DNA from: an uncultured Chitinophaga sp.
GTDB lineage: Bacteria > Bacteroidota > Bacteroidia > Chitinophagales > Chitinophagaceae
Direction: 5' to 3'
Assembly (NCBI GenBank): GCA_964453625.1
Contig: CAYVSH010000001.1
Coordinates: forward strand, 6,080 to 70,079
DNA: 64,000 nt
Position numbers and translations under genes: made by a program. This document shows, in pieces, positions 2,205 through 35,408 of the stretch; positions within the stretch are counted from its first letter, which is position 1, and the number at the start of each line of letters is the position of its first letter. The notes under the pieces are model-generated. The model was not told where the DNA came from. It worked only from the letters and a program-made list of their open reading frames with translations, and searched no databases.

Positions 2205-5153
2205 TTATCGTTTCAATATTTTCTCAGCATATCGTTCACGGTTTATCCATACTTCAAGTATATATATACCCTTAGAAAAAGACTCGACATTATTAATAGT
2301 ATAATTGCCAATGCCTTCACTTATATTTAGATCTTCTTTTCGAACAATACGTCCATTCATATCAGCAATTTGAATCCTCATTTTCCCGGCTTCTGAAGCT
2401 AAATATTTAAATGAAACCTGGTTTGTAAAAGGATTTCCCAATAACTCAATCCCATTCTTACTTTCAGTTTTTAAGACAACTATGTCAGAATAATAGTATT
2501 TTTCATCTATATCAATTGCCTTTAACCTATAGTAATATTTAGAAGCTCTTACTCTTCCAATATTATCCCTATAGCTGTATGTTCTTGGAGAAGGAGTATT
2601 AAATGCGGAAATAGAAACTATTTTTTCAAAAGTATTTCCATCCTGGCTTCTCTGCAATTCATAATGAGAAACGTTGAACTCTTCTTCCACATTCCATCTT
2701 AGATCATTCTTATCATCATTATTTTGACCTGTAAACGAAGTGAATTTTACCGGCAATGTAATTGGTGGTGTAAAAAGATCTGACCGAAAAACACCTTTGC
2801 CATGTGTGGCAGCAATTAATTTATTATTAGCATCCAGTTGAAGGTCCATAATAAGTGTTGCATCGGAAAACCCGGTGTTATAATCATACCAATTTACTCC
2901 TCTATCCGGGCTGACATATACACCAAAGTCACATCCAGCATAAATAATTTTAGGATCAACAGGGTCAATAAGTATCGCATTGAAGGGAACATCCGGCAAC
3001 CCTGATCCCCTACTCAACCAAGTAGTGCCTCCATTGGGTGTAAGATAAACATGTGATGTACCAAAACCACCAAGCACCACATAAACACTATCATCATTGT
3101 ATTTGCTTATTGCCATATCCATTACAAACCGATCTGGCAATGTCCCTTTAATACTCGTAAAAGGAGTGCCGCCAGAAGTAGTTCTTAATAAATTAGGTGA
3201 TCCTGTTACATAGATATTATTTATATCATTGTCATATTGCGCAAAAGGCGATGTTGAGATATACACCTTATTCTCATTTGTATGTGAGACTTCTAAAGCA
3301 ACTCCTGTTTTGTGTCTCTGTTCAATAAAATTATTTGGCATCGTTGCAGGGGCTCCGCTTCCAAGTGAATTATTAGTAAAGCTAGCTCCTGCATCTATAC
3401 TCTTATGTAAATTATCTGAAGCCTGGTATACAATATTTCCATTCGAAGGGGCAAATGCGATAGGAGCTACAAATGCTGTTCTTGAGTCTCCGTCAAATCC
3501 CCAATATGAATTGCTTAGTTCAGAACCAGAGGTTCCTCCGTTTGATGAACGTTTTATCGCCCTCGCATCCCGGCATGCCAACATGATATTATCATTTGTG
3601 GGATGTATTGCACAAGCTGTTCCATCACCACCGCTCCAGGTGGGTTGTACCCAGTTTATACCATTATAAATAACCTGGCCATTATCCTGTAGTCCCCCTA
3701 CCATCCTATTAGCATTTGTTTTTGAAACACCCAGAGATGCATAGAATTGAGTGGCGTTTAGTCCATTATTAATAGCAGTAAAAGTAGCTCCCCCATTTGT
3801 GCTTTTATAAACGCCTCCATCATTGCAAACATAAACTGTCCCTCTTCGTGATGGATCAAATTCTATATCATGATGATCTGCATGCAAACCGGATATACTT
3901 GTTCTCGATGTTGTGGAAACCCTGTACCTGTAAATTCCTACTCCCCCAAACATGATCGAATCTGTTGCAAAAGGATTGATCGCCACTGTATGCGCAAACC
4001 AAAACTGGTATGAGCAATGATTGGTAGTAGTACTAGCTGTTGTCCCCCCCACTACACTCCATGTTGATCCAAAATTTGTTGACCTGTAAATTTCCCTGTT
4101 CGAACTGGCAGTACTGGAACTTATTCCAATGCTGGCAATTAACTCACCTGAACCAACATTATCTAATACTATGTAACCATCGAAAGATCCGGGTAAGCCT
4201 GATGAAATCTGACCCCATGTCGGTGAAGCATTATCACCATTAGTAGTCCTGAATATGCCTTTTACAGGGTTAGTCATATTTCCAACACTAATAACTATTT
4301 GATTTGTATTGGATGGATTGATTGCTATATCCCGGACATTGTTACCCGTGTATATTTTAGTCCATGTACTTCCGCTATTTAAAGATCGATACAGGCCATC
4401 AGTTGCACATGCATAAATTGTAGAATTGTCGCCTGGCTTAAATGCTAGTGTCTGGATTGAGAAGAGATCTGATGATGTTTTCGGCATAACCTGTGTCCAG
4501 GTAACTCCACCATCAATACTTTTAATCACTCCAATTCCGTAAGTCCCTCTTGTTTTCCATACATTAAAGCCCATTACATCTACTTCAGTATGATAAACCT
4601 CGCCTGTTCCAGCATAAATTATATTCGAATTAGACGGGTTTATAATTATTGATGATACGCCTAATACAGGCAGGTTTGTTGTTACATTAGTCCAGTTAGA
4701 GCCGGCATCAGTAGATTTCCACATTCCACCTCCTGCAGAACCAACCCATAGATTATTAGAATTATTAGGATCAATTGCCATACAAACTACTCTTCCACCT
4801 ATTCTTGTACCGCTATTTGTAGTACTATAGCCAAGAGATGACCAGTTACTATTGACAGCTTCGATTCTTGTCTGATGGCCAGTTGACCGTGTATTCTTTT
4901 TTATTTCAAGATACTCTTGCCAGGCTGCCTGGTATTTTGCACTTAAATTCTGGGCATTAGGAAATCCCTTTGCCTGAAACCAGCTGCTCAATTGCTGAGC
5001 CGCTCCGCTTTCTTTTTCTCCCTTTCCAGATTTTTCTTTTCTATGAAAGCTTTCTTCCTGCCTGGTATTACTAGAGTGATTTTTCCATGTAATAAAAAAA
5101 TAGCCTGACAATACTATCGCAGTCATGGCGATAAATAAAATTGGTTTTTTCAT
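2205..5153 (-). CDS. T9SS type-A substrate, BNR/Asp-box (VPS10/sortilin-like) beta-propeller, putative glycosyl hydrolase
   Basis: Many Asp-box repeats (WKSTDAGSNW, IKSIDGGVTW, YRSLNSGSTW, YRSTNFGSTW, YKSTNGGATF, YVSPDRGVNW), HADHH motif, LPVKFTSF Ig-like domain and C-terminal GIYILEV CTD. Confidence 0.85.
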   Translation of the reverse strand: MKKPILFIAMTAIVLSGYFFITWKNHSSNTRQEESFHRKEKSGKGEKESGAAQQLSSWFQAKGFPNAQNLSAKYQAAWQEYLEIKKNTRSTGHQTRIEAVNSNWSSLGYSTTNSGTRIGGRVVCMAIDPNNSNNLWVGSAGGGMWKSTDAGSNWTNVTTNLPVLGVSSIIINPSNSNIIYAGTGEVYHTEVDVMGFNVWKTRGTYGIGVIKSIDGGVTWTQVMPKTSSDLFSIQTLAFKPGDNSTIYACATDGLYRSLNSGSTWTKIYTGNNVRDIAINPSNTNQIVISVGNMTNPVKGIFRTTNGDNASPTWGQISSGLPGSFDGYIVLDNVGSGELIASIGISSSTASSNREIYRSTNFGSTWSVVGGTTASTTTNHCSYQFWFAHTVAINPFATDSIMFGGVGIYRYRVSTTSRTSISGLHADHHDIEFDPSRRGTVYVCNDGGVYKSTNGGATFTAINNGLNATQFYASLGVSKTNANRMVGGLQDNGQVIYNGINWVQPTWSGGDGTACAIHPTNDNIMLACRDARAIKRSSNGGTSGSELSNSYWGFDGDSRTAFVAPIAFAPSNGNIVYQASDNLHKSIDAGASFTNNSLGSGAPATMPNNFIEQRHKTGVALEVSHTNENKVYISTSPFAQYDNDINNIYVTGSPNLLRTTSGGTPFTSIKGTLPDRFVMDMAISKYNDDSVYVVLGGFGTSHVYLTPNGGTTWLSRGSGLPDVPFNAILIDPVDPKIIYAGCDFGVYVSPDRGVNWYDYNTGFSDATLIMDLQLDANNKLIAATHGKGVFRSDLFTPPITLPVKFTSFTGQNNDDKNDLRWNVEEEFNVSHYELQRSQDGNTFEKIVSISAFNTPSPRTYSYRDNIGRVRASKYYYRLKAIDIDEKYYYSDIVVLKTESKNGIELLGNPFTNQVSFKYLASEAGKMRIQIADMNGRIVRKEDLNISEGIGNYTINNVESFSKGIYILEVWINRERYAEKILKR

Positions 5154-5224
5154 GATAGATCGGTTATTAAGAATGGATATTGAAAACAGAGATTATAAAC
5201 AATCACTGGCTTGATTTTAAAAAA

Positions 5225-7873
5225 TTATTTTTTTATAAGTAATTTTTGGCGAAGGATTTCATCTTCAATTTTCAATTCTACAATATACATACCGTTTGCC
5301 AGCCAGGCAGGCAGCTGTATCTCTATCACATTATCACCAATATTGATTTTCCTGGCATTAGTCTGTACAACCATACCCTGCATTGTAAGCACATTAATAT
5401 TTGAAGTTCCGGCAGTTCTTGTGTTCAGTAAAACTCTGATATTCTCTTTTGCAGGATTTGGCGCCAGGTTCATTGTAACTGCAAAGTCATTGAATGTAAT
5501 ATTTCTGATTTCACTAAGATGATTATTTCCAGAACTCTCCAGTACCCTGATTCTATAATAAGATTTTCCTTTTAGTGGGGCTTTGTCAATATTAGTATAG
5601 CTTAATGTACCTGTTACGTTCCTTGCAAAGACAGTGTCAATTTTTTCCCATATACGATTATCCCGGCTTCTTTCAATTTCATAACCAAAAGTCCCCTGAT
5701 CTTCGGCAACTGTCCAATCAAGATTCACTTCCTTATTCCTTAAGGTGGCGGAGAAGTTGATCAGGTGGGTAGCCAATGGAAAATTATCTACCAGCACCCT
5801 GTAATCTTCTACCTCACCATTGCTAAAATATCCTGTAGCATGGGCTGCTGTCATTCCCGCTGACTGTGAAGTGATCCTAACCCTCAGATATGTAAAATCT
5901 CCGTTTGTGAAAGTATTAGGAGTACTTGTCCATGCAAGCCAGAATATTTGAGAAGATGCGGAACTTGGAACTGTTATTGGAGTAATTGCTTCACTTGCAT
6001 CAAAAACACCGTTTCCATTATAATCAAGCCAGGCTATCAAAGTAGCATTTGCCCCACTATTATTATATGTTGTACACCTTACAGCATATGTTCCACCTGT
6101 TGGTGATAAAATTTGAGCATACGCTAATCCGTCATCTATATCATCAGTACTTGATGTGCCTCTTTTAAAATATTCATAATCCCATGTTGCCCCTAACCTG
6201 ATATTATCACTACGTTCATGCACTGCTGGACTTTGTGTGGCAGGATTTGAATATGGATCGTAAGAAGCAGGCGCATCACCAAAATCACATTTAGGCCGAA
6301 ATGGGTCAGATGCATCACCAGCTCCACCTGGCCATGCTGTTCCGGATGCAACAGTGATATTTGTTGTTGCACCACAAACTCCTGCTTCATTATAAGCTCC
6401 AACAACCGAGTTACCACCGCTCGATGCTCTGAAATAATATAGCCCACCTGCCCATGTCATTCCAGCCTGACCATTCCATGCAGTTGTTCCGGGGTTAGTA
6501 TATAAAGCATCCAAATTACCAGTCATCATGTTATAATGATGAAATTTACTTTGAGAATAATTTGAACTATTCCTTGCAGTATTAAAATCATAGATCACTC
6601 CATTTTTTATAATAAAATCCCCCCAGTCATGTATAGATGTAGTAGTTCCATTGATTCCGGCATCAGCTGCAAAAACCTGGTAAGCATTGATGGGATTATT
6701 ACTTCCATCAAAATCAACTCTCCAAATAATAGTCTCTCTTGTTCTTAAACTTGAACCTGATCCTTGAGTACCACCTTCGATTCCAATATATAAAGCACCA
6801 TCGTAAAAGGAACAACCAGCAGATTCAACTCCGGAATTAAATGTGGGGACATTAAATGGGGAAGCACTTAAATCTGCAATTATTACCGAGCTAGTTTCTG
6901 TATTATAATCATATCTTTTTATTTGTTTATTATTTGCATCAACAGAAACATTTTCAGAAATATAATAGAGAAACCGGTTATAAGGATCATAACCAAATGA
7001 GTTAACATATGTTCTGGAAGGATCATTAAATAATTCCCTGGCAACAGCTGTTGCAGGATCTACCATATAAACTGAGTTGTTATCCGGAGTAATCAGGAAA
7101 TAATCAGGTTGACTTTGTGTTGGTCCCCAAAAAGGACGGTTATTTGCTCCCTGGTGCCAGTTTGTTGGAAAAGTTCCTGCCACACAGGCATTGATGTCTG
7201 ATAGCCAAAAAACAGGGTCTGATCCGATAGTATTAACTGTAATGGTAATTGAATTGACGAGCCCAGGTACATTAATTGTAGCTGTTCCTCTGTTTTCATT
7301 ATTTGCCAAAGTAGTACTGTTTGCAGTAATCGTTCTTGTTAATGGTACAATTCCAACAGTTAAAATTGTACTTGCGTAAGTTGTTACATTTACTGCTGTG
7401 GCTATATTCAGGTTGTTTGTAGCTGTAATTGTAAAAGCAGCACTTCGATCTATATCATACAAAGTAAAATTCGGACCTGATACCGGACTTGCAAAAGTAA
7501 TTGTTATTGACTGTCCATTCGATGATGGATTATACTGTACATCTTCACCTGTGTATCCTGCAGCAACGTCTCCAGTATGTAAAGCATTTTCAACGCTATT
7601 TCCTGCCCCAGGAGCAATCATGCTTATACTACTTGCAGCAATTGTAAGATGGGTAGTGCCAATTGCAAATTTTTGATTTTGGGCCTGGCTATTGCTTACA
7701 TAATTACTATAAGGAGTATTTCCTGATCCGCTATTCCAATAATAATCAAGATTGTCCCAGTTAGTTTGGGCCTGGGAATATCCACCTGGACATTGTCCTA
7801 CTGCTTCGCTATATATTGCCGGTGCGGCAACAAAGAGTAAAAAGAGTTGCAGTTTTTTATACTGGTTAAACAT
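5225..7873 (-). CDS. T9SS type-A substrate with GEVED domain
   Basis: Signal peptide; CDFGDAP ... WLDYNGNGVFD ... GEVEDY; LAPNPAK...GMYIVEL CTD. Confidence 0.85.
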   Translation of the reverse strand: MFNQYKKLQLFLLFVAAPAIYSEAVGQCPGGYSQAQTNWDNLDYYWNSGSGNTPYSNYVSNSQAQNQKFAIGTTHLTIAASSISMIAPGAGNSVENALHTGDVAAGYTGEDVQYNPSSNGQSITITFASPVSGPNFTLYDIDRSAAFTITATNNLNIATAVNVTTYASTILTVGIVPLTRTITANSTTLANNENRGTATINVPGLVNSITITVNTIGSDPVFWLSDINACVAGTFPTNWHQGANNRPFWGPTQSQPDYFLITPDNNSVYMVDPATAVARELFNDPSRTYVNSFGYDPYNRFLYYISENVSVDANNKQIKRYDYNTETSSVIIADLSASPFNVPTFNSGVESAGCSFYDGALYIGIEGGTQGSGSSLRTRETIIWRVDFDGSNNPINAYQVFAADAGINGTTTSIHDWGDFIIKNGVIYDFNTARNSSNYSQSKFHHYNMMTGNLDALYTNPGTTAWNGQAGMTWAGGLYYFRASSGGNSVVGAYNEAGVCGATTNITVASGTAWPGGAGDASDPFRPKCDFGDAPASYDPYSNPATQSPAVHERSDNIRLGATWDYEYFKRGTSSTDDIDDGLAYAQILSPTGGTYAVRCTTYNNSGANATLIAWLDYNGNGVFDASEAITPITVPSSASSQIFWLAWTSTPNTFTNGDFTYLRVRITSQSAGMTAAHATGYFSNGEVEDYRVLVDNFPLATHLINFSATLRNKEVNLDWTVAEDQGTFGYEIERSRDNRIWEKIDTVFARNVTGTLSYTNIDKAPLKGKSYYRIRVLESSGNNHLSEIRNITFNDFAVTMNLAPNPAKENIRVLLNTRTAGTSNINVLTMQGMVVQTNARKINIGDNVIEIQLPAWLANGMYIVELKIEDEILRQKLLIKK

Positions 7874-8211: not shown

Positions 8212-11200
8212 CTAATAAAGTAAATTAAATTTGGTTGTAAGTACCCGGCTTCCACTGTCAATACGTAAATAATAAGTTCCTTTGGGTAGTGAAGATATGC
8301 CGGTCAATGAAAGTGTATTATTGCCTCGTTCTATAATTTCATAAAATTTCATTACCGTCTTTCCATGAGCATCATGAATAAATATACTTGTAACTCCAGA
8401 TTTGTCAGAGAACAATACAACTTGCAAACGGTCTTTTACAGGATTTGGGAAAATATTGAGTTCCTGTTTATTTAATTGACTTTTTCTGACCAGCAATACA
8501 TTACTAATACTGGTACGGCCATTTTTCAGCAAGGTTTTCAGCCTGTAATAAATAATATCACTGCTTATTGCAGAAACATTATCAATTACTGAATAATTTT
8601 CAACTTCATTGATTACAGCTCTGCCTGTTATTATTTGTACATCCGAAAAATTGACACCATCCACACTTCTTTCAATTGTAAATTGTTCTGCTTCCTGGCG
8701 GCAAAGTACAGACCAATGAATATTAACAGATTGGTTAAAAATAGCAGCTTTGAAACTTATTATTTCACAATTAAGAACATAAAAAATACAACGCCAGTCC
8801 CTTTCTGTATTACAACCCATGCCTGAAGCAACTCCTGTTCGTTGAACTGTTGTAATAGAACCTGGTGATGGATCTCCTGATGTGGTTCCTCCATTACCCA
8901 TATAAGCAGACGTTCCTTTTACACTTGCATTATCATTATCAAAACGGTCATCAAGTCCATCACCATCTGTATCCACCCCGGTTAATGTTACATTATCATC
9001 CCTAATACCGTTAAAATTCAGATCATTTCCCTCAATAATATCAATAAGTCCATCGCCATCAGTATCCAGGTCGAGATAGTCTGGCGTAGTATCACCATCA
9101 GTATCTACTGGATGGATACCGTCTCCTCCAAACCCAACAAAATTATCATACCTGTTATCAATACCATCTCCGTCTGTATCAAGTCCGGTTGGTAACAGGT
9201 ATCCTGTAGTTGTTAATCCTTCAACATTATCAGGTATGCCGTCTTCATCAGAATCAATATCGTAAGGATTTGTTCTTCCAACTCCATCAGTATTAGGAAG
9301 CGTAAAAGAACCCAATGCAGCCAGCACTGTATTCCGGCCATTTGTATTAACTGCACCATCTACTCTTCCATCCCAGTTTGCATCTGTAAGTTGTGCTTCT
9401 TTAACATCTGTAATTCCGTCACCATCACTGTCCAGATCATAGGGGCTGGGTTTACTATCATTATCCATATTTTTATACGGCCATGAATCAGCTCTCCCAT
9501 CATTATTGATATCTGCTCCCGAACGTAATAAGGCATTGGCTGCATTCTCTGCGATAGCATCATTACCAACATCACCATCCACCTCATCAGCAATACCGTC
9601 TCCATCCGTATCCACATATCCGCTTATTTTAGCACTATTTCCTGAATCAGTACCATAAATTTCTATTATATCGGGAATCCCATCATTATCACTATCCAGG
9701 TCAAGATAATTTGGAATGCCATCACTATCAGTATCTATAGCACCCAGTCCAAGACCTGAAAACCTTAAAAAGTTTCCTCCGGATGTATTACCATCTACAT
9801 TATCCGACAATCCATCATTATCCGCATCAGAAAAATTATCTATTCTTCCATCACCATCGGCATCAACTCCGAAACTTTCAATCGTATCTGTAATTCCATC
9901 GTTATCGCTATCCCGGTCGAGATAATTAGGAATACCATCAAGGTCTTTATCCATATTATCATTTACTCCATCACCGTTACTGTCTACATAACCAGGAAAA
10001 TCAACATCGTAGAAATTGGGAATACCGTCATTATCAACATCAGCTCCCGGATCAAACCAGTCATTAAAACCATCTGCATTATTATCAACCCAAAGAATTG
10101 GTAACCCGGGACTACTATCCGCCCAGTTAGGAATTCCATCACCATCCTGATCTGCAATTGCTGTGGGATTGACCAACTCCAGGTAATCCGGTATACCATC
10201 CCTGTCATCATCAATATCCGGACACCCGGATATATAAATATTTATCTGAATGGTATCATTACATGATCCTGGCCCATCATAAAATCCATATATAACCCTT
10301 GTAAAAGTGATTGGAACAGCGGGGTTATAAACATTTGCAGATATAAAGGGCATAGAAGAATAGAACCGATAACCACCATACATACTTACTGGTATAGTAA
10401 CTGAGTTAGAAGGACAAGTATTGATAAGTATTGTATCACCTGGAGTAGAACAAGTTCCTGTTAATAAATCATTGACCGATGTTGGATTTGTACATCCTGC
10501 AACAAATACACCACTAGAATCAGCAAGGCTGATATTAGAAAGTTTACCTGCATAAGCAATTCTTGCACGGTTAGCAATTGAAGATGCACAGGAATAGACT
10601 ACACAAGACCGGGCAGTAAATACTTCAAATCTAACCTGTCCTGTTCCATTGGCTGCTACTTCCCCGCCAGTTGAACCATTTGCACCGGTTCCTAACCTGA
10701 AAACAACTCTGTTATTAGCAAAATCATACTCAGCTTCATCATCGCCCGGAGAATCCGTTTTGGAGACACCGTTTATCATCAGACTACCGGGTTTATAGGA
10801 TGTATTAAATGGAATATTATCCAGAATAGTAGTAGAAGTGCTGGCGTCATTACCTGTATTATGATAATCTAATTGATACCTGATTACATCACCAGGCGCC
10901 AATGAACCACCATTAATATCTGTTGAGCTTTTCCGCAGATCAAAAGTTGGTGTATACTGGGATATGGAAGTTGTAGCAACCTGTATCATATAATTTTCTG
11001 ACGGAGAACTGAAGCGGATACTTGCAGAAGTTTGGTTATTCCCTAATACAGCGTTTGATGTATTCGGTACAATTAAAATATCAGCGTCATATCCTAAAGT
11101 ATTATTATGTGCCGGATTCCTTGTTGTCACTACAGTTCCATACCTCGAAATGGTACTGTTCCACATGTCATTATTATTCGCTGTTGAGTTCGGAGTTAAG

Positions 11201-12540
11201 TTTGTATAACTACCAACAAGTGGATTTGAATCTTGCTTAAATGAATACTCATCTGTTGACACTCTATCACCATCAAACACTACAGCTCCCAATTCACAAC
11301 TAACCGGACCAGATGGAGGTGTTAAAAAACCTGATATGGGCACATGTAAAGCCGGATCTCCACCATTCATAATTACTGAACCATCGTATACGGTAAGGTT
11401 ACGTACTATTGTAGCCGGATCAGCATAAGCAATTACAATTGTCCATCCGCCTGCACCATTTACAATACCAGCAGGGCTGCAAACATTAGCAATAGTATAT
11501 GTTCCGTTAGGACTTGTCGGATTAATTAGAGAAGTAATATCAACAAAACACCTATAACCGGTATGTGGCAAACCAGGTACTAAAGTATTATTATGATAAT
11601 CAGTTTGTGCTGAAGTAAGATCTAGGAAGGTGCCAGACCCGGGTAATCTCAATTTCACTGCGTTCTCACCGGTTATCCAACTCGTATTTGTTCCATTTGT
11701 ACCTTGAGTTGCTCCCCAATATAATCCTGCAAATAACACCTGGCTGCAACTCGGTAAACTAAGATCTGCACTGGATGAATTAAATATTGTTGGATCGACC
11801 CCTTTTAATTCAAGATTAAACGACATATCAGAACTTGTGGCATTTGCCTGATGAACTTCAACAGCAATATCATTATTTCCATTAACAAATGTGGAAGTTG
11901 GCACTGTAATAGTAATGACAGCATCCTCAACAGCTGATGATGCAGCAGTTGTATTGATAATTGCACCAGCCGGCATATTATTACGGCTAACTTCTACACC
12001 ATTTACATATAAAACAAACCCATCATCCCGTTCAACATTAAAAGTAAATGCAGAATATAAAGAAGTGTTTGGGATGCTTATCGTTTTTCTGAAATAGGTT
12101 GTAATCCATTTTGAGCAGCCATTTGTTGGAAAACATATATTACCATTACAACCATAAGGTACACAGGTTGCCTCGTCGCCATCACCATAGCCTAATTCAC
12201 CAACACCACTTGGCCATGCTGCATCATTATAGCCAAGACTCGTCCATGAACCAGATGGTGCAGAGCCGGTAGCAAAATATTTCCAACTTGATCCAAATGG
12301 TATGATTGTAGTTCCGTTAATATCTATATTAACTGCAGTATTTCCATTATTAACTGCTGAACCACCCGGAGGTGCTTCTGTTGTAATTACTCCTGCCGAA
12401 GAGACAATGTTATTTGCTACAAAAACAATATTCCCTTTTACTGATGAATTACTATAACGCACAGTCATGGGCCTTAAGACCTGTGCAGAAATAGAGTGGC
12501 CCGAAAGAATCAGTAGAAGTATAAGTTTAAATGTTTTCAT
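8212..12540 (-). CDS. Large T9SS substrate: DUF3344-like domain with inserted jelly-roll module, DUF11 domain, thrombospondin type-3-like Ca-binding repeats, CTD
   Basis: [17 protein letters not shown] and GGWTIVIAY (DUF3344-like); [27 protein letters not shown] (DUF11); many DxDxDGxxD/N repeats; IFPNPVKD...GTYYLRI CTD. Confidence 0.8.
   Translation of the reverse strand: [1442 protein letters not shown]
8900..10215 (-). repeat. Coding Asp-rich DxDxDG(I/V)P(D/N) repeat tract (TSP3-like)
   Basis: Many imperfect repeats in translation, e.g. [54 protein letters not shown]. Confidence 0.85.
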
Positions 12541-27025: not shown

Positions 27026-27083
27026 ATACCCTTAATACTAATGAAAATTATTGTTTTACGATTTTTTGTTGTGCTGTTGCGCC
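26995..27083. repeat. 89-bp direct repeat, copy 1 (last 11 codons + 3'UTR + terminator of the T9SS paralog)
   Basis: Identical by eye to 29437..29525. Confidence 0.95.
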
Positions 27084-29159
27084 ATCACAGATTGCCCGTA
27101 CAATATAAAAGCCAGGTTGCAAATTGCCTATATTGATTGTTTCAGTCTGGCTACTGCTGAAATTTTCAATTCTTTTGGCCACCTGTCCGTTAGCATTAAA
27201 AAGCTCAATCATCACTTTCTTATTTTGCCAGCCAGAAGGCAACGTAATATTTAGTTGCGTACTAGCAGGATTTGGATAAGTAACAATATTGATTGCATTT
27301 TCTGCCTGCTTTGAAATCCTGATAACCCGAACTGAAGAAAATTCAAACTTACCATCATTATCAACCGTACGAATACGATAATAAATTACACCAGATTGAA
27401 CTGTACTTACATCATCTTTCAAAGTATAGCTCTTATTAGTAGTTGTATTTCCGAAAGCAAACACAAGACCAGCGTCACTATAATTCACTCCATCAAAACT
27501 TTTTTCTACTACAAAATGACTAACATTCTCTTCTGTGGCTGTTATCCATTTTAGATCCACTTTTTTTACTGTATTATTTAATGTGGCAGTAAAGGATTCC
27601 ATTTTTACAGGCAATGTCGTCATTTGAGGATAAACAAAACCTCTGGTTACCATACTATATTTACGGGTTTCTGTTGTATTGCTTGATATGATCATTCCTA
27701 CTTTCACTGTATATGATGATAGATTAGTATTAGAAACCGTAAACATGTATTGTTTTGCACTTGTATCAATTCCATTAACTGTTTTATTATCTATATTAGT
27801 TCCTCTGAAACTACCAGCTGTTGGCTGTGTAATCTGAATGCCTGGGTTATTATTTACGTAAGCAGCAGTGGCGCCTGTACCCATTCCAATTTCATTGAAC
27901 TCCCTTAAACTGGAATTACCATCTATATCAAGTGCTGTTAAAGTAAATGAACTTAATGATAATGGGATATTAGTTCCGGTAATCATATTACGAAGAGTAA
28001 ATACTGCATAAAAAGTACCTATCCCGCCACCAGGAGTTATATGAGGTTGAAAACCTTCAATAAAACCAACGCCAGCTCCATTATCATCCACAATAGCCAC
28101 TTTTGCTCCATTTACTAAACTATCAATCTGAACATGAACATCCATCCCCGGTGCTACACTTTCATATTTATATACAGCACCTGTCTGCTTATCTGTCCCT
28201 GAAATCAAAACGGGATTAGCAGTAAAATCGAAAATATTTTGTGTCAGAGATGCCATTAAAGGTGCTGGAAAATTTAAAATAGAGCAGCTAGACGTTTGTG
28301 ATCCTGAAACTTTACCATTTGGGATATAGTTGACTGGGGTAGCAACACAATACGAATTCAAAAACAGGCCACCTGCTGTGTTTGCTGAGTTCATCACAGA
28401 AATGGTGCCACCACCTGTAATATTTGTTTTATGATTTTTTAAAGTAATATTTTCAATGGTTCCATTGGCATTAACTCCACTTAGTTTAAAAACTCCAAGT
28501 GCACTTGCAACTTGAACTTTTACATCTTGAAAATGAATATTGCTACCCGTGATCATAAAATCACCTGTATTATGCCAGCCTACCGAAACTGAGCTATATA
28601 ATAATGTATCAATTGAATTTGAATTTTGATTGTAGTCTTTACCTAAAGTGACAGATGTATTATATAATTTTCTTGATCCCCAATTCTTATTTTCAAAATT
28701 TTCTGCTACCTCTACATAACTGTTCCTTATTTCCACATAACCACCTGCATTTATAAAAGAGCCGGTTTGAGGTGTGCCCGATTCACCAGCACCAATAAAT
28801 CGGTATTGACGATACTCTGCATTATTAATATAAACTTTACCCGTTGAAGCATTTGTAAACGTTAATCCTGATGCCACAATCAATCTTGGAGATAAACCTC
28901 CGGGATTGGCTATATTAATAGTACCATTATTTAAAATATTTGAACCCGTAATTGTAACTACATGTTTAATATTTATAACAGCTGTTGTTGGAATATTGCC
29001 AGCATTAGGAACAACTCCGCCTTGCCAAGTTGCTGCACTGGTCCATGAACCATTAGCAATGGTAGTATAAGTTTGTGCAAATACTCCTGTTGAATAAATA
29101 ACTGCAATAACTACTACCAGGTAGTTTACAATTTTTTGTAATGGTACAATCTTTTTCAT
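27048..29159 (-). CDS. T9SS type-A substrate, paralog A (extra N-terminal domain); start ATG 29159 or GTG 29168
   Basis: Signal peptide, TIANGSWTSAATWQGG N domain, GAVYKY..V..G.D domain, LPVKMESF Ig-like domain, TYPNPA...GFYIV CTD. Confidence 0.85.
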   Translation of the reverse strand: MKKIVPLQKIVNYLVVVIAVIYSTGVFAQTYTTIANGSWTSAATWQGGVVPNAGNIPTTAVINIKHVVTITGSNILNNGTINIANPGGLSPRLIVASGLTFTNASTGKVYINNAEYRQYRFIGAGESGTPQTGSFINAGGYVEIRNSYVEVAENFENKNWGSRKLYNTSVTLGKDYNQNSNSIDTLLYSSVSVGWHNTGDFMITGSNIHFQDVKVQVASALGVFKLSGVNANGTIENITLKNHKTNITGGGTISVMNSANTAGGLFLNSYCVATPVNYIPNGKVSGSQTSSCSILNFPAPLMASLTQNIFDFTANPVLISGTDKQTGAVYKYESVAPGMDVHVQIDSLVNGAKVAIVDDNGAGVGFIEGFQPHITPGGGIGTFYAVFTLRNMITGTNIPLSLSSFTLTALDIDGNSSLREFNEIGMGTGATAAYVNNNPGIQITQPTAGSFRGTNIDNKTVNGIDTSAKQYMFTVSNTNLSSYTVKVGMIISSNTTETRKYSMVTRGFVYPQMTTLPVKMESFTATLNNTVKKVDLKWITATEENVSHFVVEKSFDGVNYSDAGLVFAFGNTTTNKSYTLKDDVSTVQSGVIYYRIRTVDNDGKFEFSSVRVIRISKQAENAINIVTYPNPASTQLNITLPSGWQNKKVMIELFNANGQVAKRIENFSSSQTETINIGNLQPGFYIVRAICDGATAQQKIVKQ

Positions 29160-29185
29160 CGTTTTCACTTTAGGGTGTAGGGTAT
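29153..29185. repeat. 33-bp direct repeat around the start codon, copy 1
   Basis: Identical to 30752..30784. Confidence 0.9.
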
Positions 29186-29238
29186 GATCGAAGCTTTTTA
29201 GCTTCCCTTAAGTCAACTATGAAAACCGATTTGTAAGA

Positions 29239-29418
29239 TTGAAACAGACAGGAGGTAAATCTCCTATTGAGAGTAGTTTGTTTCAGGGGTCGGATTTCGT
29301 CGTTTTCTAAGGGATTGTTCGATTCTAACACAAACATAATACGCAGTTTTTTTACTTGCAAGTTTTTTGCGTACTATTTCTCAAATAAAACCGTAAATAC
29401 TGTAGTGTTTTTACGATT
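29239..29418. repeat. 180-bp direct repeat (promoter + 5' leader), copy 1
   Basis: Matches 30841..31020 with one mismatch (29396 A vs 30998 T). Confidence 0.95.
29331..29361 (-). promoter_or_regulatory. Primary-sigma promoter of T9SS paralog A (same sequence at 30933..30963 for paralog B)
   Basis: Minus strand ACTTGCA ... TATGTTTG, fitting TTG/TAnnTTTG. Confidence 0.7.
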
Positions 29419-29436
29419 ACACTTTAGAATTGATTT

Positions 29437-29525
29437 AAAGAAACCCATCCTGGGACCAGGACGGGTTATACCCTTAATACTAATGAAAATTATTGTTTTA
29501 CGATTTTTTGTTGTGCTGTTGCGCC
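29437..29525. repeat. 89-bp direct repeat, copy 2
   Basis: Identical to 26995..27083. Confidence 0.95.
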
Positions 29526-30758
29526 GTTACATTTTACTAGTACGAAGTACGTACCTGAGCTCAAATTATTAACGCTGAAAGATTCTGTCTGGCTGCTGTT
29601 TGCTTTTTCCATCCTGTTTACCATTATTCCGTTTGAGGAATATAATTCATAAACTACTTTTTTATTTTGCCAGTTTGCAGGAATTGTAACTCGTAGCTCA
29701 TTTTGAACCGGGTTAGGGAATGCCGTAATGGAGATTGTTTTATCTGACTTAGAGCTTAGTCTTACCATTCGGGTTTGAGAAAGCTCACTCTTCTCGTCAA
29801 TATCTACAGATCGTATCCTGTAATAAAATATACCTGACTGAACATTTCCTAAATGATCTGTGAAATTGTAGTTTGTAATGCTTGATGCAGTTCCGTAGGC
29901 AAACACTACTCCTACTTCGTTGAAGTTAATACCATCAGTACTTTTTTCAACCACAAAGTGACTAACGTTAATTTCACTTGAGGTGGTCCATTTCAATTCA
30001 GTATTTTTATTATTCAATGTGGCTGTAAAAGAAACAAGCTTTACTGGCAATATCTTCATATTGGGATATTGAAAATCACCAAAAAATGCAGAAAAGTTCC
30101 TAGCACCAGATCCAGATGTATAAATAGTACCAAAATCGATAGTTAATGATGAAACATTACTATTTCTCACAGTAAACATTACTTCCTTTTTGGTGCTGTC
30201 AATACCTGAAACATTGTTCCCTGCAATGTTTGTACTTGTGAATAAGCTGCCATTTTGAATAACAGAAATTTCAGGTGTTGTGCTTTGGTATGCAACAGTG
30301 CCTCCATTCATATTAATTCTACAATATTCTAATACGCTTAAGGTTGTTCCATCAATGTCTAACCCTGTGGTTGCAAGATTAGGGAAGGTATAAACTGATC
30401 CATCTGTGTTTTTAAACTCAATAAGAAATCTTGCATATGAATTTGGGCTTCCAGTAGTTACAGAACTAACAATAGGTTGAAAACCACCATCATATCCCAC
30501 TCCGCCGAATTGATCAATATTAGTAACCATTGCCCCATTCATTAGACTTTGAATTGTTACAAATGCATCTACACCGGTTTTAATATTTGTGAATTTATAA
30601 ACTGCACCTTGCTGCAAAGGTGTTCCACTTTGCAATGTAGCATTTGTAAAGCTTAGGTAGGGGAATGTTTGGCTATTTACAGATTTATGAAATAAGTTAA
30701 ATGACAATAGTATCAGAAGCTTAAAAATTTTTACTTTACTGTTTAGAAGTGTTTTCAT
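29490..30758 (-). CDS. T9SS type-A substrate, paralog B; start ATG 30758 or GTG 30767
   Basis: GAVYKFTNIKTGVDAFV domain homologous to the C-terminal part of paralog A; LPVKLVSF; AFPNPV...GTYFV CTD; same GATAQQKIVKQ end. Confidence 0.85.
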   Translation of the reverse strand: MKTLLNSKVKIFKLLILLSFNLFHKSVNSQTFPYLSFTNATLQSGTPLQQGAVYKFTNIKTGVDAFVTIQSLMNGAMVTNIDQFGGVGYDGGFQPIVSSVTTGSPNSYARFLIEFKNTDGSVYTFPNLATTGLDIDGTTLSVLEYCRINMNGGTVAYQSTTPEISVIQNGSLFTSTNIAGNNVSGIDSTKKEVMFTVRNSNVSSLTIDFGTIYTSGSGARNFSAFFGDFQYPNMKILPVKLVSFTATLNNKNTELKWTTSSEINVSHFVVEKSTDGINFNEVGVVFAYGTASSITNYNFTDHLGNVQSGIFYYRIRSVDIDEKSELSQTRMVRLSSKSDKTISITAFPNPVQNELRVTIPANWQNKKVVYELYSSNGIMVNRMEKANSSQTESFSVNNLSSGTYFVLVKCNGATAQQKIVKQ

Positions 30759-30840
30759 CGTTTTCACTTTAGGGTGTAGGGTATATTCGAAGGCTCATTT
30801 AAGCCGTCCTTAAGTTCACGTTGAAAACCGATTTAAGTTA

Positions 30841-31020
30841 TTGAAACAGACAGGAGGTAAATCTCCTATTGAGAGTAGTTTGTTTCAGGGGTCGGATTTC
30901 GTCGTTTTCTAAGGGATTGTTCGATTCTAACACAAACATAATACGCAGTTTTTTTACTTGCAAGTTTTTTGCGTACTATTTCTCAAATAAAACCGTATAT
31001 ACTGTAGTGTTTTTACGATT
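30841..31020. repeat. 180-bp direct repeat (promoter + 5' leader), copy 2
   Basis: Matches 29239..29418 with one mismatch. Confidence 0.95.
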
Positions 31021-31076
31021 TCTACTAGCCTTCAATCATTTGTATCTCGATATTTGCAGAATTATATTCAACAAAT

Positions 31077-31109
31077 AAAAAAGGCGAACCCGATTTAAAA
31101 GGTTCGCCT
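31077..31109 (-). terminator. Intrinsic terminator directly after atpA
   Basis: AGGCGAACC / GGTTCGCCT stem with an A-run on the left. Confidence 0.8.
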
Positions 31110-31134
31110 GATCTTATTTAGGTATAAACTTTAC

Positions 31135-32715
31135 TTATGACTTGTATTGAGGTATCAGGCTATTAGCCAATTCTACCATCTTCTTTAAACCGTCTTCAGG
31201 TAAATTCCCTTTCTTAAACTCTGCCATCACTTCAGGTAGTTTGTTATCCATTTCCATCAGGAAGTGTTCTTCAAACTCTTTCACTCTTTTTACCGGCACA
31301 TCTTTGATCAAACCATTTGTACCCAGGTAAATAATTGCTACTTGCTTTTCTACAGGGAAAGGAGAATATTGAGGTTGCTTTAATATCTCAACGTTTCTGG
31401 CACCTTTATCAATTACATTTTTGGTAGCAGCATCCAGGTCACCACCAAACTTAGAGAAGGCTTCCAGCTCACGGTAAAGGGCCTGGTCCAATTTCAATGT
31501 ACCGGCTACTTTCTTCATTGATTTGATCTGTGCATTACCACCCACACGGCTTACTGAGATACCTACGTTGATAGCCGGACGAATACCGGATAAGAACAGG
31601 TTTGTTTCCAGGAATATCTGACCATCAGTAATTGAGATTACGTTGGTTGGGATATAAGCTGATACGTCACCTGCCTGTGTTTCGATAATTGGTAAAGCAG
31701 TCAATGAACCTCCACCTTTTACCAAATGCTTAATACTATCTGGCACATCGTTCATGTTCTTTGCCACAGCATCATCATTAATAACTTTTGCAGCTCTTTC
31801 CAATAAACGGCTATGCAGATAGAATACATCTCCCGGATATGCTTCACGACCCGGAGGACGACGCAACAACAATGAAACCTCACGGTATGCCACGGCTTGT
31901 TTTGATAAATCATCATAAATGATCAAAGCGGGGCGACCGGTATCACGGAAAAACTCACCAATTGCAGCACCGGCAAATGGTGCATAGAACTGTAATGGCG
32001 CAGGATCTGATGCAGACGCCGCAACGATTGTTGTGTACTGCATTGCACCGGCATCTTGCAGTGTTTGCATTACACCGGCAATGGTAGATGCTTTCTGACC
32101 GATTGCCACATATATACAATACACAGGTTTACCTGCTTCAAAAAATTCTTTCTGGTTGATGATAGTGTCAACACAAATAGCGGTTTTACCAGTCTGACGG
32201 TCACCGATAACCAATTCCCGTTGTCCACGACCAATCGGGATCATCGCATCAATTGCTTTAATACCAGTTTGCAATGGTTCTTTAACAGGCTCACGGAAAA
32301 TAACACCCGGTGCTTTTCTTTCCAGTGGCATTTCATACAACTCACCAGTGATAGGACCTTTACCATCAATAGGGTTACCAAGTGTATTTACAACTCGGCC
32401 TACCATTCCTTCTCCTACTTTAATAGAAGCGATCTGGCCAGTACGCTTTACTTTAGCCCCTTCTTTAATATTTCCGCTTTCACCCATCAATACCACACCC
32501 ACATTATCTTCCTCAAGGTTCAATGCAATAGCTTTTACACCGTTCTCAAACTCTACCAGTTCACCGTAGCGAACATTACCCAATCCATACACACGGGCAA
32601 TACCATCACCAACCTGCAATACAGATCCTACTTCTTCCAGGTCTGCAGAAGCATTGAAGTTGCTCAACTGCTGGCGCAGTATCGCTGATATTTCATCTGG
32701 TTTAATCTCTGCCAT
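31135..32715 (-). CDS. atpA: F0F1 ATP synthase subunit alpha
   Basis: [50 protein letters not shown]. Confidence 0.99.
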
Positions 32716-32744
32716 ATTATTTTATTTTCTGTTTTTTATTTTTT

Positions 32745-32806
32745 GTTACCCGGCACCTGTGCTACTATGATCTTTCGTTGCGTCGCACTCTTCATCGTCC
32801 GGTAAT
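32745..32806. repeat. ~60-bp GC-richer intergenic element with short inverted ends (REP/MITE-like candidate)
   Basis: TTACCCGG ... CCGGTAA ends around GTTGCGTCGCACTC; lies between atpH and atpA in otherwise T-rich DNA; single copy in the window. Confidence 0.4.
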
Positions 32807-32818
32807 TCTATTCAACTT

Positions 32819-33382
32819 TTATCTTACCTTATAAACAAAGTCATTGTTCTCAAACTGCTTTGCTATTGCTTTCAGATCGTAGGCAATACTTGCATCAATC
32901 AGCTTATCTCCAATCTGCAAAACAAAACCACCAATCAGGTCTTCATTCACTTTTTCTTCTAATTCTATCTTCTCAAATCCTGCTGATTTTTTTACCTGGT
33001 TTACAATGGCAATCTTTGTTGCATCCGTCAAAGGTGCAGCAGTTGTTAATTTAATAGTATGAATATTTTTTTCTGCTTTGTACGCATCAATAAAAGCACC
33101 ACTTATTTCAGGTAAATTACTCTCCCTGCCCTTTGTAGTCAATAATCTCATAAAAGCAATCGTCATTTCATTCAGTTTACCGGCAGTAACTGCATCAATG
33201 ATCTTTTTCTTTACATCTGCAGTAATAATAGGGCTACGAAGCAGGTTCACAAAGTCACGGTTGCTTTTGCATACCGCCTGTATCCATTGCATATCAGCAT
33301 ATACCTGTTCCAGCTGTCCTTTTTCTACAGCCAGGCCAAGTAAGGCTTTTGCGTATCTTGTTGCTAAACGTGGGTTTGGCAT
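32819..33382 (-). CDS. atpH: ATP synthase F1 subunit delta
   Basis: RYAKAL ... LIGGFVLQIGDKLIDAS. Confidence 0.97.
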   Translation of the reverse strand: MPNPRLATRYAKALLGLAVEKGQLEQVYADMQWIQAVCKSNRDFVNLLRSPIITADVKKKIIDAVTAGKLNEMTIAFMRLLTTKGRESNLPEISGAFIDAYKAEKNIHTIKLTTAAPLTDATKIAIVNQVKKSAGFEKIELEEKVNEDLIGGFVLQIGDKLIDASIAYDLKAIAKQFENNDFVYKVR

Positions 33383-33395
33383 TTCAATTCTTTAA

Positions 33396-33890
33396 TTAGT
33401 TCAATTTTACTCCGTCAACCAGCCCTTTAATATGAGCTTCCTGTGCTTCTTTGTTTCCTAATTCTTTTCTCAGCACTTTTTCACTTACTTCTATCACCAA
33501 CTTACCTACCTGGTTCTTCACATCAATCATTGCTCTCATCTTTTGAGTTTCAATAGCTGCCTGTGCTTCTAAGATGATCTTATTAGCCTCCGTCTTGGCA
33601 AGCTCTTTCGCATCGTTGATCATTTTCTCTTTGGTCTCTCTTGCTTCTTTCAGCATAATGGCTCTTTCTTCACGGGCAGAGGCCAGCAATGCTTCGTTCT
33701 CACTTTTCATCTGCGCCATTTCCTCTTTTACTTTCTGTGCAGTGGCTAGCGATTCAGAGATTGAATTTTCCCTGTCACGAAGACCTTTTATAATTGCCGG
33801 CCAAGCCATTTTCTTTAAAATAAAGAATACTACTAGGAAGGCCACTAAGGTCCATATAAGCAAACCAAATTCGGGAGTAAGAAGTTTCAT
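33396..33890 (-). CDS. atpF: ATP synthase F0 subunit b
   Basis: N-terminal TM ending in AWP.I...L..RE, then coiled coil; operon position. Confidence 0.97.
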   Translation of the reverse strand: MKLLTPEFGLLIWTLVAFLVVFFILKKMAWPAIIKGLRDRENSISESLATAQKVKEEMAQMKSENEALLASAREERAIMLKEARETKEKMINDAKELAKTEANKIILEAQAAIETQKMRAMIDVKNQVGKLVIEVSEKVLRKELGNKEAQEAHIKGLVDGVKLN

Positions 33891-33973
33891 TGTTTATATC
33901 AATTTCTTGTTTCAGATTAAATACTGCACCCTCCGCCCTGTGCTTTGGATGCAGTAATTTTTTGTGGCAATGA

Positions 33974-34237
<264 letters not shown>

Positions 34238-34265
34238 TTAAAAAAACAATACAACCTTAAATCGT

Positions 34266-35408
34266 TTATGCATGTGCATGAGCTTCGTCGTGATGTTCTC
34301 CTTCTAATGCCTGCCCTATAAACACAGCTGTAAGCATGGTGAAGATGAATGCCTGTAAAAAAGCAACCAACACTTCAATAAAGTAAATGAAGATGGTAAA
34401 CCCAACTGACAATGGTGATGCAGCCCAACCTGCAACAGAACTAAGTTTTCCAAAAATGAAAATCAACGATATTAAACAAATAATAATAATGTGACCCGCC
34501 ACCATATTGGCAAACAAACGAATAATTAATGCAAACGGCTTAATGAATACACTCAGAAATTCCACCGGTACCAGAATGAACTTTACACCTAAGGGTACTC
34601 CCGGCGGATTGAAAATATGACCCCAATAATGCTTGTTTGTACTAAAAAGTATAACTATAAATGAAATTACACCTAGTACCAGGGTAAAAGCTATGTTTCC
34701 GGTTACGTTTGCAGAACCCGGTATCAATCCGAAAATATTATTAATAAGAATAAAGAAGAACATCGTTAACAGAAATGGCAGGTACTTCTCATACTTATGA
34801 CCAAGATTTGGCTTTGCCACTTCATCTCTAACGAAAGTTATGACCGGCTCCAATAAACTTTGTGAACCCTTTGGAGCAGTAGTAACACCTACCCCGCTTT
34901 TATATCTTTTAGCGATACGAAGCATGATCCATACGAAGATGATCAATGCCAGAAGCATTTGTACTACATTACGGGTAAGCGATATGTCGTAAATTTTTAC
35001 AGTTGCATCTAGTTTACCCTCGGCAGTTACGGCTACAATATCTCCTTCAGCAAACTTTTTCGGATCAAGACCCATTTCATGAATAGAGTGCTCAGTGAGC
35101 ATTCTGTACCCCTGATAATCATGGTGTCCATGTTCAAATTTTGATGACATGAAACTGGTAAATCCTTTCTGCGGAGAATATAATATTATAGGTAGGGGAA
35201 TTCCGACAGGCTTGCCATTGATATCCATAAAGTGAAACTCATGGCCGTTTAAAACGTGGCCGAAAATCACTTTGGCAGCATCAAACCCTTCTTTTTTTTC
35301 GCCATCCTTTTCACCTTCACCCCCACCAGCAAACGCCGACATAGAATTGAACAAGAAAAATAAGCTGAAAACCGCTACAGTAAAGGATTTGAAACGTTGT
35401 ACTACCAT
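34266..35408 (-). CDS. atpB: ATP synthase F0 subunit a with Bacteroidota-type N-terminal extension
   Basis: IRLFANMVAGH, FLQAFIFTML; signal-peptide-like and soluble N-terminal extension. Confidence 0.97.
   Translation of the reverse strand: MVVQRFKSFTVAVFSLFFLFNSMSAFAGGGEGEKDGEKKEGFDAAKVIFGHVLNGHEFHFMDINGKPVGIPLPIILYSPQKGFTSFMSSKFEHGHHDYQGYRMLTEHSIHEMGLDPKKFAEGDIVAVTAEGKLDATVKIYDISLTRNVVQMLLALIIFVWIMLRIAKRYKSGVGVTTAPKGSQSLLEPVITFVRDEVAKPNLGHKYEKYLPFLLTMFFFILINNIFGLIPGSANVTGNIAFTLVLGVISFIVILFSTNKHYWGHIFNPPGVPLGVKFILVPVEFLSVFIKPFALIIRLFANMVAGHIIIICLISLIFIFGKLSSVAGWAASPLSVGFTIFIYFIEVLVAFLQAFIFTMLTAVFIGQALEGEHHDEAHAHA

Follow-up and report, generated by a model that had tools for sequence, protein, structure and literature searches.

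A structured 5' leader, probably a new regulatory RNA element, upstream of T9SS surface-protein genes in Chitinophagaceae

Stabilising hairpins in 5' untranslated regions have been described for the ompA leader of E. coli and the aprE leader of B. subtilis, where any stable 5' hairpin serves and there is little constraint on its sequence. The leader described here shares with them its length, its position in front of a gene for an abundant exported protein, a 5' end paired close to the transcription start and a start region which is, here by prediction, open; it departs from them in having a hairpin of 109 nt whose sequence is conserved across genera, and most strongly on one strand. A further likeness is found with translational riboswitches such as the add adenine riboswitch, structured leaders where a strand may choose between two partners, of which one lies at the start codon, but the junction-type aptamer, the covariation of the alternative state, the metabolic gene context and the Shine-Dalgarno pairing are all absent here. 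The hag leader of B. subtilis, with CsrA and FliW, provides a conceptual analogy, in that the synthesis of a secreted structural protein could be coupled to a trans-acting binder, although no CsrA-type GGA sites were identified in the present leader. As regards T9SS cargo, control has been described at the level of transcription (PorXY) in the portions of the literature available, and no leader RNA for T9SS cargo genes was found in the literature searched.

Within the Bacteroidota, the structured 5' regions of Flavobacterium psychrophilum, together with Flavo-1 (PMC9723704), resemble the present leader in following TAnnTTTG promoters, in being conserved beyond the species and in not being found in Rfam, whereas the available portion of that source reports none for T9SS cargo or for Chitinophagaceae. 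The same source gives a median 5' UTR of 24 nt for F. psychrophilum, against which a leader of some 167 nt stands out (PMC9723704).

The window, that is, the whole stretch of 64,000 nt of an uncultured Chitinophaga sp. that was analysed, carries two adjoining paralogous genes on its minus strand. Gene A (27048..29159) encodes a protein of 703 aa with a signal peptide and a PF18962 T9SS C-terminal sorting domain (CTD; E 4e-13), and gene B (29490..30758) a protein of 422 aa, also with PF18962 (E 2.4e-12); the two proteins are 45% identical over 391 aa. From the sequence they look like separate transcription units. A hairpin formed by ACCCGUCCUGG and CCAGGAUGGGU and followed by UUCUUU (29437..29466, minus strand), found by eye 24 nt past the gene B stop and absent from the output of the terminator scan, is likely to be the terminator that parts them, while the scan itself lists a terminator-like hairpin at 31082..31109 (minus strand), after atpA and upstream of the copy B promoter.

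Several other features of this genome may be recorded alongside. The genes atpB, atpE, atpF, atpH and atpA lie in a row at 31135-35408 (minus strand), and past the atpA terminator the two T9SS genes are found instead of atpG; no gene for the ATP-synthase gamma subunit was seen among the next ORFs scanned beyond atpA. The window holds a further T9SS-CTD protein (1442 aa, 8212-12540, minus strand) without such a leader. The N-terminal domain of A and B has a third paralog, with 37% identity, on another contig of the same genome (C122, ~3949-5520, minus strand); its promoter block is recognisably related, and its leader of ~115 nt is unrelated and lacks the hairpin motif. Finally, a domain of ~110 aa preceding the CTD (..SFTA..LKW....SHF.VE.S.DG..) is shared, at 25-37% identity, by ~25 genes of this genome, and is not named by Pfam at E<=0.001.

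The leader of gene A (copy A) occupies 29160..29326 on the minus strand, 167 nt from the predicted transcription start to the base before the ATG, and that of gene B (copy B) 30759..30928, also on the minus strand, with 170 nt and the same architecture. The earlier note had proposed a structured leader of about 165 nt on both paralogs, and the two near-identical copies agree with it: the element is conserved and structured, and is probably transcribed. A covariance model of the hairpin matches copy A at 29203-29325 with 123.7 bits and copy B at 30805-30927 with 120.6 bits. The window contains exactly two occurrences of a 25-nt core of the leader (0 expected), and a blastn search with 271 nt of upstream sequence as query found only these two copies in the whole 3.17-Mb assembly. 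Nucleotides 1-89 of the leader are identical between the copies, as are the last 26, and all of the 17 differing alignment columns fall within nt 90-144. The minimum free energy (MFE) is -36.6 kcal/mol for copy A (z -2.70, 1 of 200 shuffles as good) and -38.0 kcal/mol for copy B (z -3.92, 0 of 200 shuffles as good).

Both copies are predicted to adopt one fold, made up of a 5'-closing helix P0, a long irregular hairpin P1-P5, a small hairpin P6 and a largely unpaired, A-rich tail. In copy A the long hairpin comprises five helices over 109 nt of the minus strand (29205..29313, MFE fold). P1, formed in the MFE folds of both copies, pairs CCCUUAG with CUUAAGGG. P3 joins GAAA.CCGA (29298-29290) to UCGG.UUUC (29229-29221), and P4 joins UGAAACA (29285-29279) to UGUUUCA (29246-29240); within P4, P5 joins AUAGGAG (29267-29261) to CUCCUGU (29254-29248) around the loop AUUUAC. 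P0 is formed by AUCGAA (29323-29318) and UUCGAU (29192-29187), its 3' strand being overlapped by P6, which in the copy A fold is GAAGCU-AAAA-AGCUUC (29205-29190) and in copy B GGCUU-AAAU-GAGCC. The stems that had been named beforehand were thus all found on the minus strand and in their place, and the claim that a hairpin is kept in the segment that differs between the copies holds as well.

Upstream of each leader lies a promoter block, at 29331..29418 for copy A and at 30933..31020 for copy B, both on the minus strand. In copy A the -33 element TTGCA is at 29361-29357 and the -7 box TATGTTTG at 29338-29331; in copy B the same elements are at 30963-30959 and 30940-30933. In both, TTG and TA are spaced by 20 nt (TTG-N20-TAnnTTTG) ahead of the leader of a T9SS-CTD gene, and from AATCGTAAAA onward 91 of 92 upstream bases agree between the copies. 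The published consensus for Bacteroidota, as given in the available portions of the sources, is TTTG at -33 and TAnnTTTG at -7, separated by ~19-21 bp (PMC6847099, PMC9723704). The -33 element of the window reads CTTG, compared with the TTTG of the consensus, and, as far as their sequence goes, the window promoters are of the Bacteroidota sigma-A type. Since the -7 box of F. psychrophilum is placed at -12 to -5 in the available part of its description (PMC9723704), copy A is predicted to start with the A at 29326 and copy B at 30928, in each case one base ahead of the conserved GAAUCGAAC. No TAnnTTTG was seen near the ATG in the window, where a second promoter might have been found.

The strict promoter TTG-N20-TAnnTTTG is kept in 43 of 56 distinct homologs, and in these the gap between the -7 box and GAATCG is 5 nt in 40 and 4 nt in the remaining 3. 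The conservation of the promoter block includes the spacer bases. Further upstream, a dyad, read from the sequence as CGTAAA-N12-TTTACG, lies at ~29415-29392 in copy A and at window positions 30994-31017 in copy B (both minus strand), and its core CGTA-N16-TACG precedes the -33 element in 30 of 56 copies. Many relatives also carry a palindrome, ATTGAT-A-ATCAAT, ~100 bp before the start (columns 28-70 of alignment A2), which is absent in the window. Both the dyad and the palindrome look like transcription-factor sites.

The element is not restricted to this genome. With the 271-nt query, blastn matched 28 of the 200 other family genomes searched (E<=0.01, 70-82% identity) and, at E<=1e-5, 30 of 400 other Chitinophagaceae genomes, representing 18 of 151 genera, that of the window included. 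The covariance model of the hairpin (R1; 124 positions, 28 pairs) matched 15 of 150 other genomes of the family, each from a different genus; when genomes were sampled from the order as a whole, it matched 3 of 11 Chitinophagaceae genomes and none of 139 genomes from 25 other families. Moreover, an exact 23-letter pattern occurred at 40 places in species-representative genomes, 39 of which were the element, in records titled Chitinophagaceae, Chitinophagales, 'Sphingobacteriales' or Bacteroidota MAGs; the match in a MAG labelled Lachnospiraceae (L088) was discarded as a chance occurrence of the pattern inside a coding region. In all, 64 distinct copies, from Chitinophagaceae, were aligned. Three loci (L011, L012 and L017) were left out of the pair counts, as blastn had matched their promoter part and the model reached an E of only 0.09-0.8 with filters off. 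Two loci of one genome (L014 and L101; G072:C1, ~264300-265900), belonging to small genes of 140 and 145 aa in which Pfam finds no CTD, retain the promoter and the opening bases of the leader but not the hairpin; the hairpin is therefore dispensable for some genes, and these loci may be regarded as natural deletion variants.

When Rfam 15 was searched with window positions 28900-31300 at E<=10, the 10 matches obtained were all far below the gathering threshold, and the sole one overlapping a leader was CRISPR-DR2, with 17.8 bits against a threshold of 37. Sixteen homolog loci searched at E<=1 gave 8 matches, all below gathering and none recurrent on the leader. The initial impression that no recognised riboswitch was involved is thus upheld by Rfam, in which no family, Flavo-1 included, reaches its gathering threshold, and the element may be treated as a structured 5' leader motif that is a new candidate absent from Rfam.

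The comparison of homologs, which the earlier note had proposed as a check, supports the fold. In a model-based alignment of 56 distinct sequences, 88.2% of cells were paired, compared with 36-58% in controls with slid pairing, and 17 of 28 pairs had changed on both sides, compared with 7-11. With 64 distinct sequences the paired cells remained at 88.2% (35-59% in slid controls), the pairs changed on both sides rose to 19 of 28 (9-11), the cells with a both-side change numbered 71 (19-29) and the covariation score was 0.158 (at most 0.066); all of these figures lean towards the structure, as the alignments were fitted to it. None of 500 column shuffles of the 64 sequences reached any of the five measures, a control that overstates the signal because the aligned sequences are related. 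RNAalifold found 19 pairs in five helices, 6 of them with compensatory changes, in an 11-sequence hairpin alignment, and no pairs either in a 15-sequence MAFFT alignment of the whole leader (A3) or in a 67-row model-based alignment (A5).

Two checks are independent of the structure of the model. Folded singly, the 56 sequences had a median z of -2.04, with 30 below -2, and their own MFE structures recovered P3b in 49, P5 in 39, P1b in 37, P2 and P4 in 36 each and P3a in 32. On a tree, switches between GC and AU were counted at least 6 times at one P5 pair, 9 times at a pair of the P4 extension and 2-3 times at several others; these counts may be inflated, since the tree was a quick maximum-likelihood one built from the promoter and the leader without the tested columns (~280 short columns). 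Most pairs vary little, and of the P3 cells 86% are paired and only 6 show a both-side change. In most rows the model places P1 off register by one base, and P4 is weak in a subgroup of six loci (L006, L068, L084, L058, L086 and L007).

P0 and P6 flank the long hairpin. For P0, complementarity beats shuffles (p<=0.05) in 15 of 54 homologs, with a mean z of -1.33; the partner of GAAUCGAAC lies just 3' of the hairpin in varied registers (GUUC, GUUCGA, UUCGAUU or GAUUC), and in one homolog (L020) both strands have changed, to GCUAAG/CUUAGC. The helix begins 2-4 nt from the predicted transcription start. P6 follows P1 in most copies and is not column-consistent in the MAFFT alignment A6; a stem of at least 5 bp is present at this place in 25 of 52 homologs, compared with 11.1 expected, under many unrelated stem sequences. 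From some of the counts for P6, for the opening energy and for start-region pairing, L014 and L050 (G072 coding region), L043, L048, L051 and L010 (contig end) were dropped. Taken by its compensatory changes, the leader is a conserved structured cis-RNA motif.

Pairing does not seem to account for all of the conservation. Mean identity reaches 87% in the 5' half of the hairpin and 69% in the 3' half, a difference which speaks for some constraint in addition to pairing; the first 50 nt would then be read by something else, either as DNA or as RNA. Several unpaired bases are at least 90% conserved. On this ground it could be argued that what is conserved is DNA, whether promoter, operator sites past the start or the product of gene conversion between tandem paralogs, and that the RNA fold is incidental. 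The promoter block, spacer included, is indeed as conserved as the leader, the leader is most conserved in its promoter-proximal 50 nt, and copies A and B are identical over ~180 bp while their coding regions have diverged. However, compensatory changes recur in P4, P5 and P0, more than 100 bp separate the promoter from the 3' strand and from P6, the pairing of P6 is kept under many sequences, and the pattern of divergence between A and B mirrors that seen across genera, all of which makes an explanation at the DNA level unlikely, even if it is the best placed of the alternatives.

In Bacteroidota, as reported in the available portion of one study, initiation relies on adenines upstream of the start and on little structure, not on Shine-Dalgarno pairing (PMC6847099). 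In copy A the open, A-rich start region CCCUACACCCUAAAGUGAAAACG together with the ATG (29159-29157) spans 29157..29183 on the minus strand, with A at -3, -6 and -12. The predicted energy for opening the region from -18 to +12 has a median of 2.9 kcal/mol, compared with 4.35 when the leader is shuffled, and is below the shuffled-leader value in 43 of 51 homologs, these rows being related to one another; the lower energy implies that the fold leaves the start region free. The tail of the leader contains the conserved motif CCCUAAA..GAAAACGAUG. CCCUAA was rejected as a signal of start regions in general, since among the 2607 ORFs of at least 120 aa in this genome only 17 have it in the 60 nt ahead of them.

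The reading that we favour, somewhat above even chances, is that of a cis-acting structured leader that governs stability and translation and is recognised by a trans-acting factor. Each copy would be the 5' untranslated leader of its own mRNA, transcribed from a sigma-A-type Bacteroidota promoter. Its first bases would pair with the segment past the main hairpin to form P0, followed by P1-P5, P6 and a single-stranded, A-rich tail of ~25 nt, and the whole would be a post-transcriptional element, acting in cis on one subfamily of genes for T9SS surface proteins. Protection of the mRNA may come from the compact fold and from the pairing of its 5' end, and by keeping the start region, which lacks a Shine-Dalgarno sequence, open, the fold may ensure a high default output. 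The highly conserved 5' strand could then offer a binding site to a protein or RNA acting in trans to tune this output.

A different use of the same parts is conceivable, in which a ligand, a protein or an RNA occupies or releases the 5' strand and so frees the 3' strand, which then pairs with GAAAACGAUG at the start codon and turns translation off. The complementarity is present, as AUCGGUUUUC and GAAAACGAU could form a helix spanning the AUG, with -9.9 kcal/mol in copy A and -8.3 kcal/mol in copy B, and this complementarity beats shuffles (p<=0.05) in 13 of 51 homologs, with a mean z of -1.0; the higher conservation of the 5' strand relative to its partner and the conserved unpaired bases would also suit a switch. 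A second partner is provided by GAAAAC near the 5' end, and with it the earlier note had proposed alternative folds. Such folds are conceivable but unsupported: GAAAAC(GA) and (UC)GGUUUUC are complementary in 88.3% of cells among 56 homologs, but no pair of the alternative pairing has changed on both sides, and shuffles do equally well. Furthermore, at equilibrium the fold prediction gives a more open start region than shuffled leaders do, there is no multi-helix junction, and the genes encode surface proteins and not metabolic or transport functions. We regard such a switch as unlikely, a little more so than an explanation at the DNA level.

A more specific version carries the same low probability. 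Here the leader would be a translational switch suited to a phylum without Shine-Dalgarno pairing, in which the start region is mimicked by the conserved 5' strand of the hairpin; this strand would hold the anti-start-region strand until an envelope or T9SS-load factor binds it and releases the anti-strand onto GAAAACGAUG; if this were true, a load-sensing switch would tie the synthesis of one class of surface cargo to the secretion capacity of the cell. A direct repeat between the 5' start of the leader and the tail before the ATG was looked for and rejected, the likeness of the 5' strand to the start region being weak (9 of 51 homologs at p<=0.05, mean z 0.97), which likewise counts against the general switch.

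A further possibility is that transcription ends within the leader, the element then being an attenuator of transcription or a small RNA in its own right, terminated at the U-rich 3' strand of P3 (UCGGUUUUCAUU). In the window and in most homologs a hairpin base CCGA/UCGG is indeed followed by UUUUCAUU. Nevertheless, the terminator scan lists no intrinsic terminator in copy A or copy B, the stem is long, interrupted and AU-rich, and in L006-L009 AUUC, AGUC, AAUC or CUUC stands in place of the U run that follows P3, and the pairing partner has changed with it; termination within the leader is accordingly held to be improbable.

The genes that follow the element bear on both its function and its spread. 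In every case with enough flank it lies at a constant distance upstream of an ORF with a signal peptide. PF18962 was found in 15 of 20 complete downstream ORFs, two more ORFs running off their loci; the five complete ORFs without it comprise four of 140-167 aa and one of 812 aa. The downstream proteins show at least four N-terminal architectures and have in common the pre-CTD domain and a CTD ending in ..TAQQKI(V/I)K(Q/N). In this genome there are 37 matches to PF18962, 35 of them over the cut-off, and the leader stands before only two. The suggestion of a cis-regulatory RNA for T9SS substrates was therefore right as to the kind of gene, since the element precedes T9SS-CTD genes, but too broad in its scope, with 2 of 37 PF18962 matches carrying the leader, and the distribution suggests that the leader is characteristic of a single subfamily of cargo genes, and this in only some of the Chitinophagaceae.

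That the same promoter and leader precede at least four N-terminal architectures joined to a common C-terminal module, and that several genomes hold 2-3 copies, often in tandem, would be expected of a portable cassette conserved for recombination among surface-protein genes and not for any function of its RNA. The identity of 70-82% across genera, in contrast, needs purifying selection, no flanking repeats or mobility genes were seen, and covariation is present, so that a mere cassette is very improbable.

Least credible of all is a uORF or leader peptide starting at an NUG inside P4, for although this codon is ATG in 21 of 56 homologs, and in one G072 gene that ATG begins the protein, it is CTG in 22 (both window copies among them), TTG in 4, GTG in 4 and no start codon in 5, and the frames that it opens run from 2 to 57 codons and shift between close relatives through indels of 1-2 nt, so that neither start codon, frame nor length is conserved. 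The ORF of that G072 gene, one of the two natural variants without the hairpin, thus starts at the ATG that elsewhere sits inside P4. In three relatives (L009a, L009b and L004) the frame from the P4 NUG runs stop-free and in frame into the main ORF, the loci listed for this being L093 (G129:C115) and L092 (G115:C26); this is probably due to chance, and such a frame, if used, would extend the protein by ~45 residues ahead of its signal peptide.

A structured leader acting in cis thus remains the reading that we prefer, and the element is probably a new regulatory RNA that recurs in dozens of related genomes. Its 64 distinct copies make it a concrete new motif candidate for curation of the Rfam type, and the promoter together with the leader is a ready-made expression cassette for these organisms. 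The Chitinophagaceae are common in soil, groundwater and activated sludge, as the titles of the MAG records indicate, and have been little studied; in this family, the leader is a potential test case for the control of initiation by mRNA structure in bacteria that do without Shine-Dalgarno pairing.
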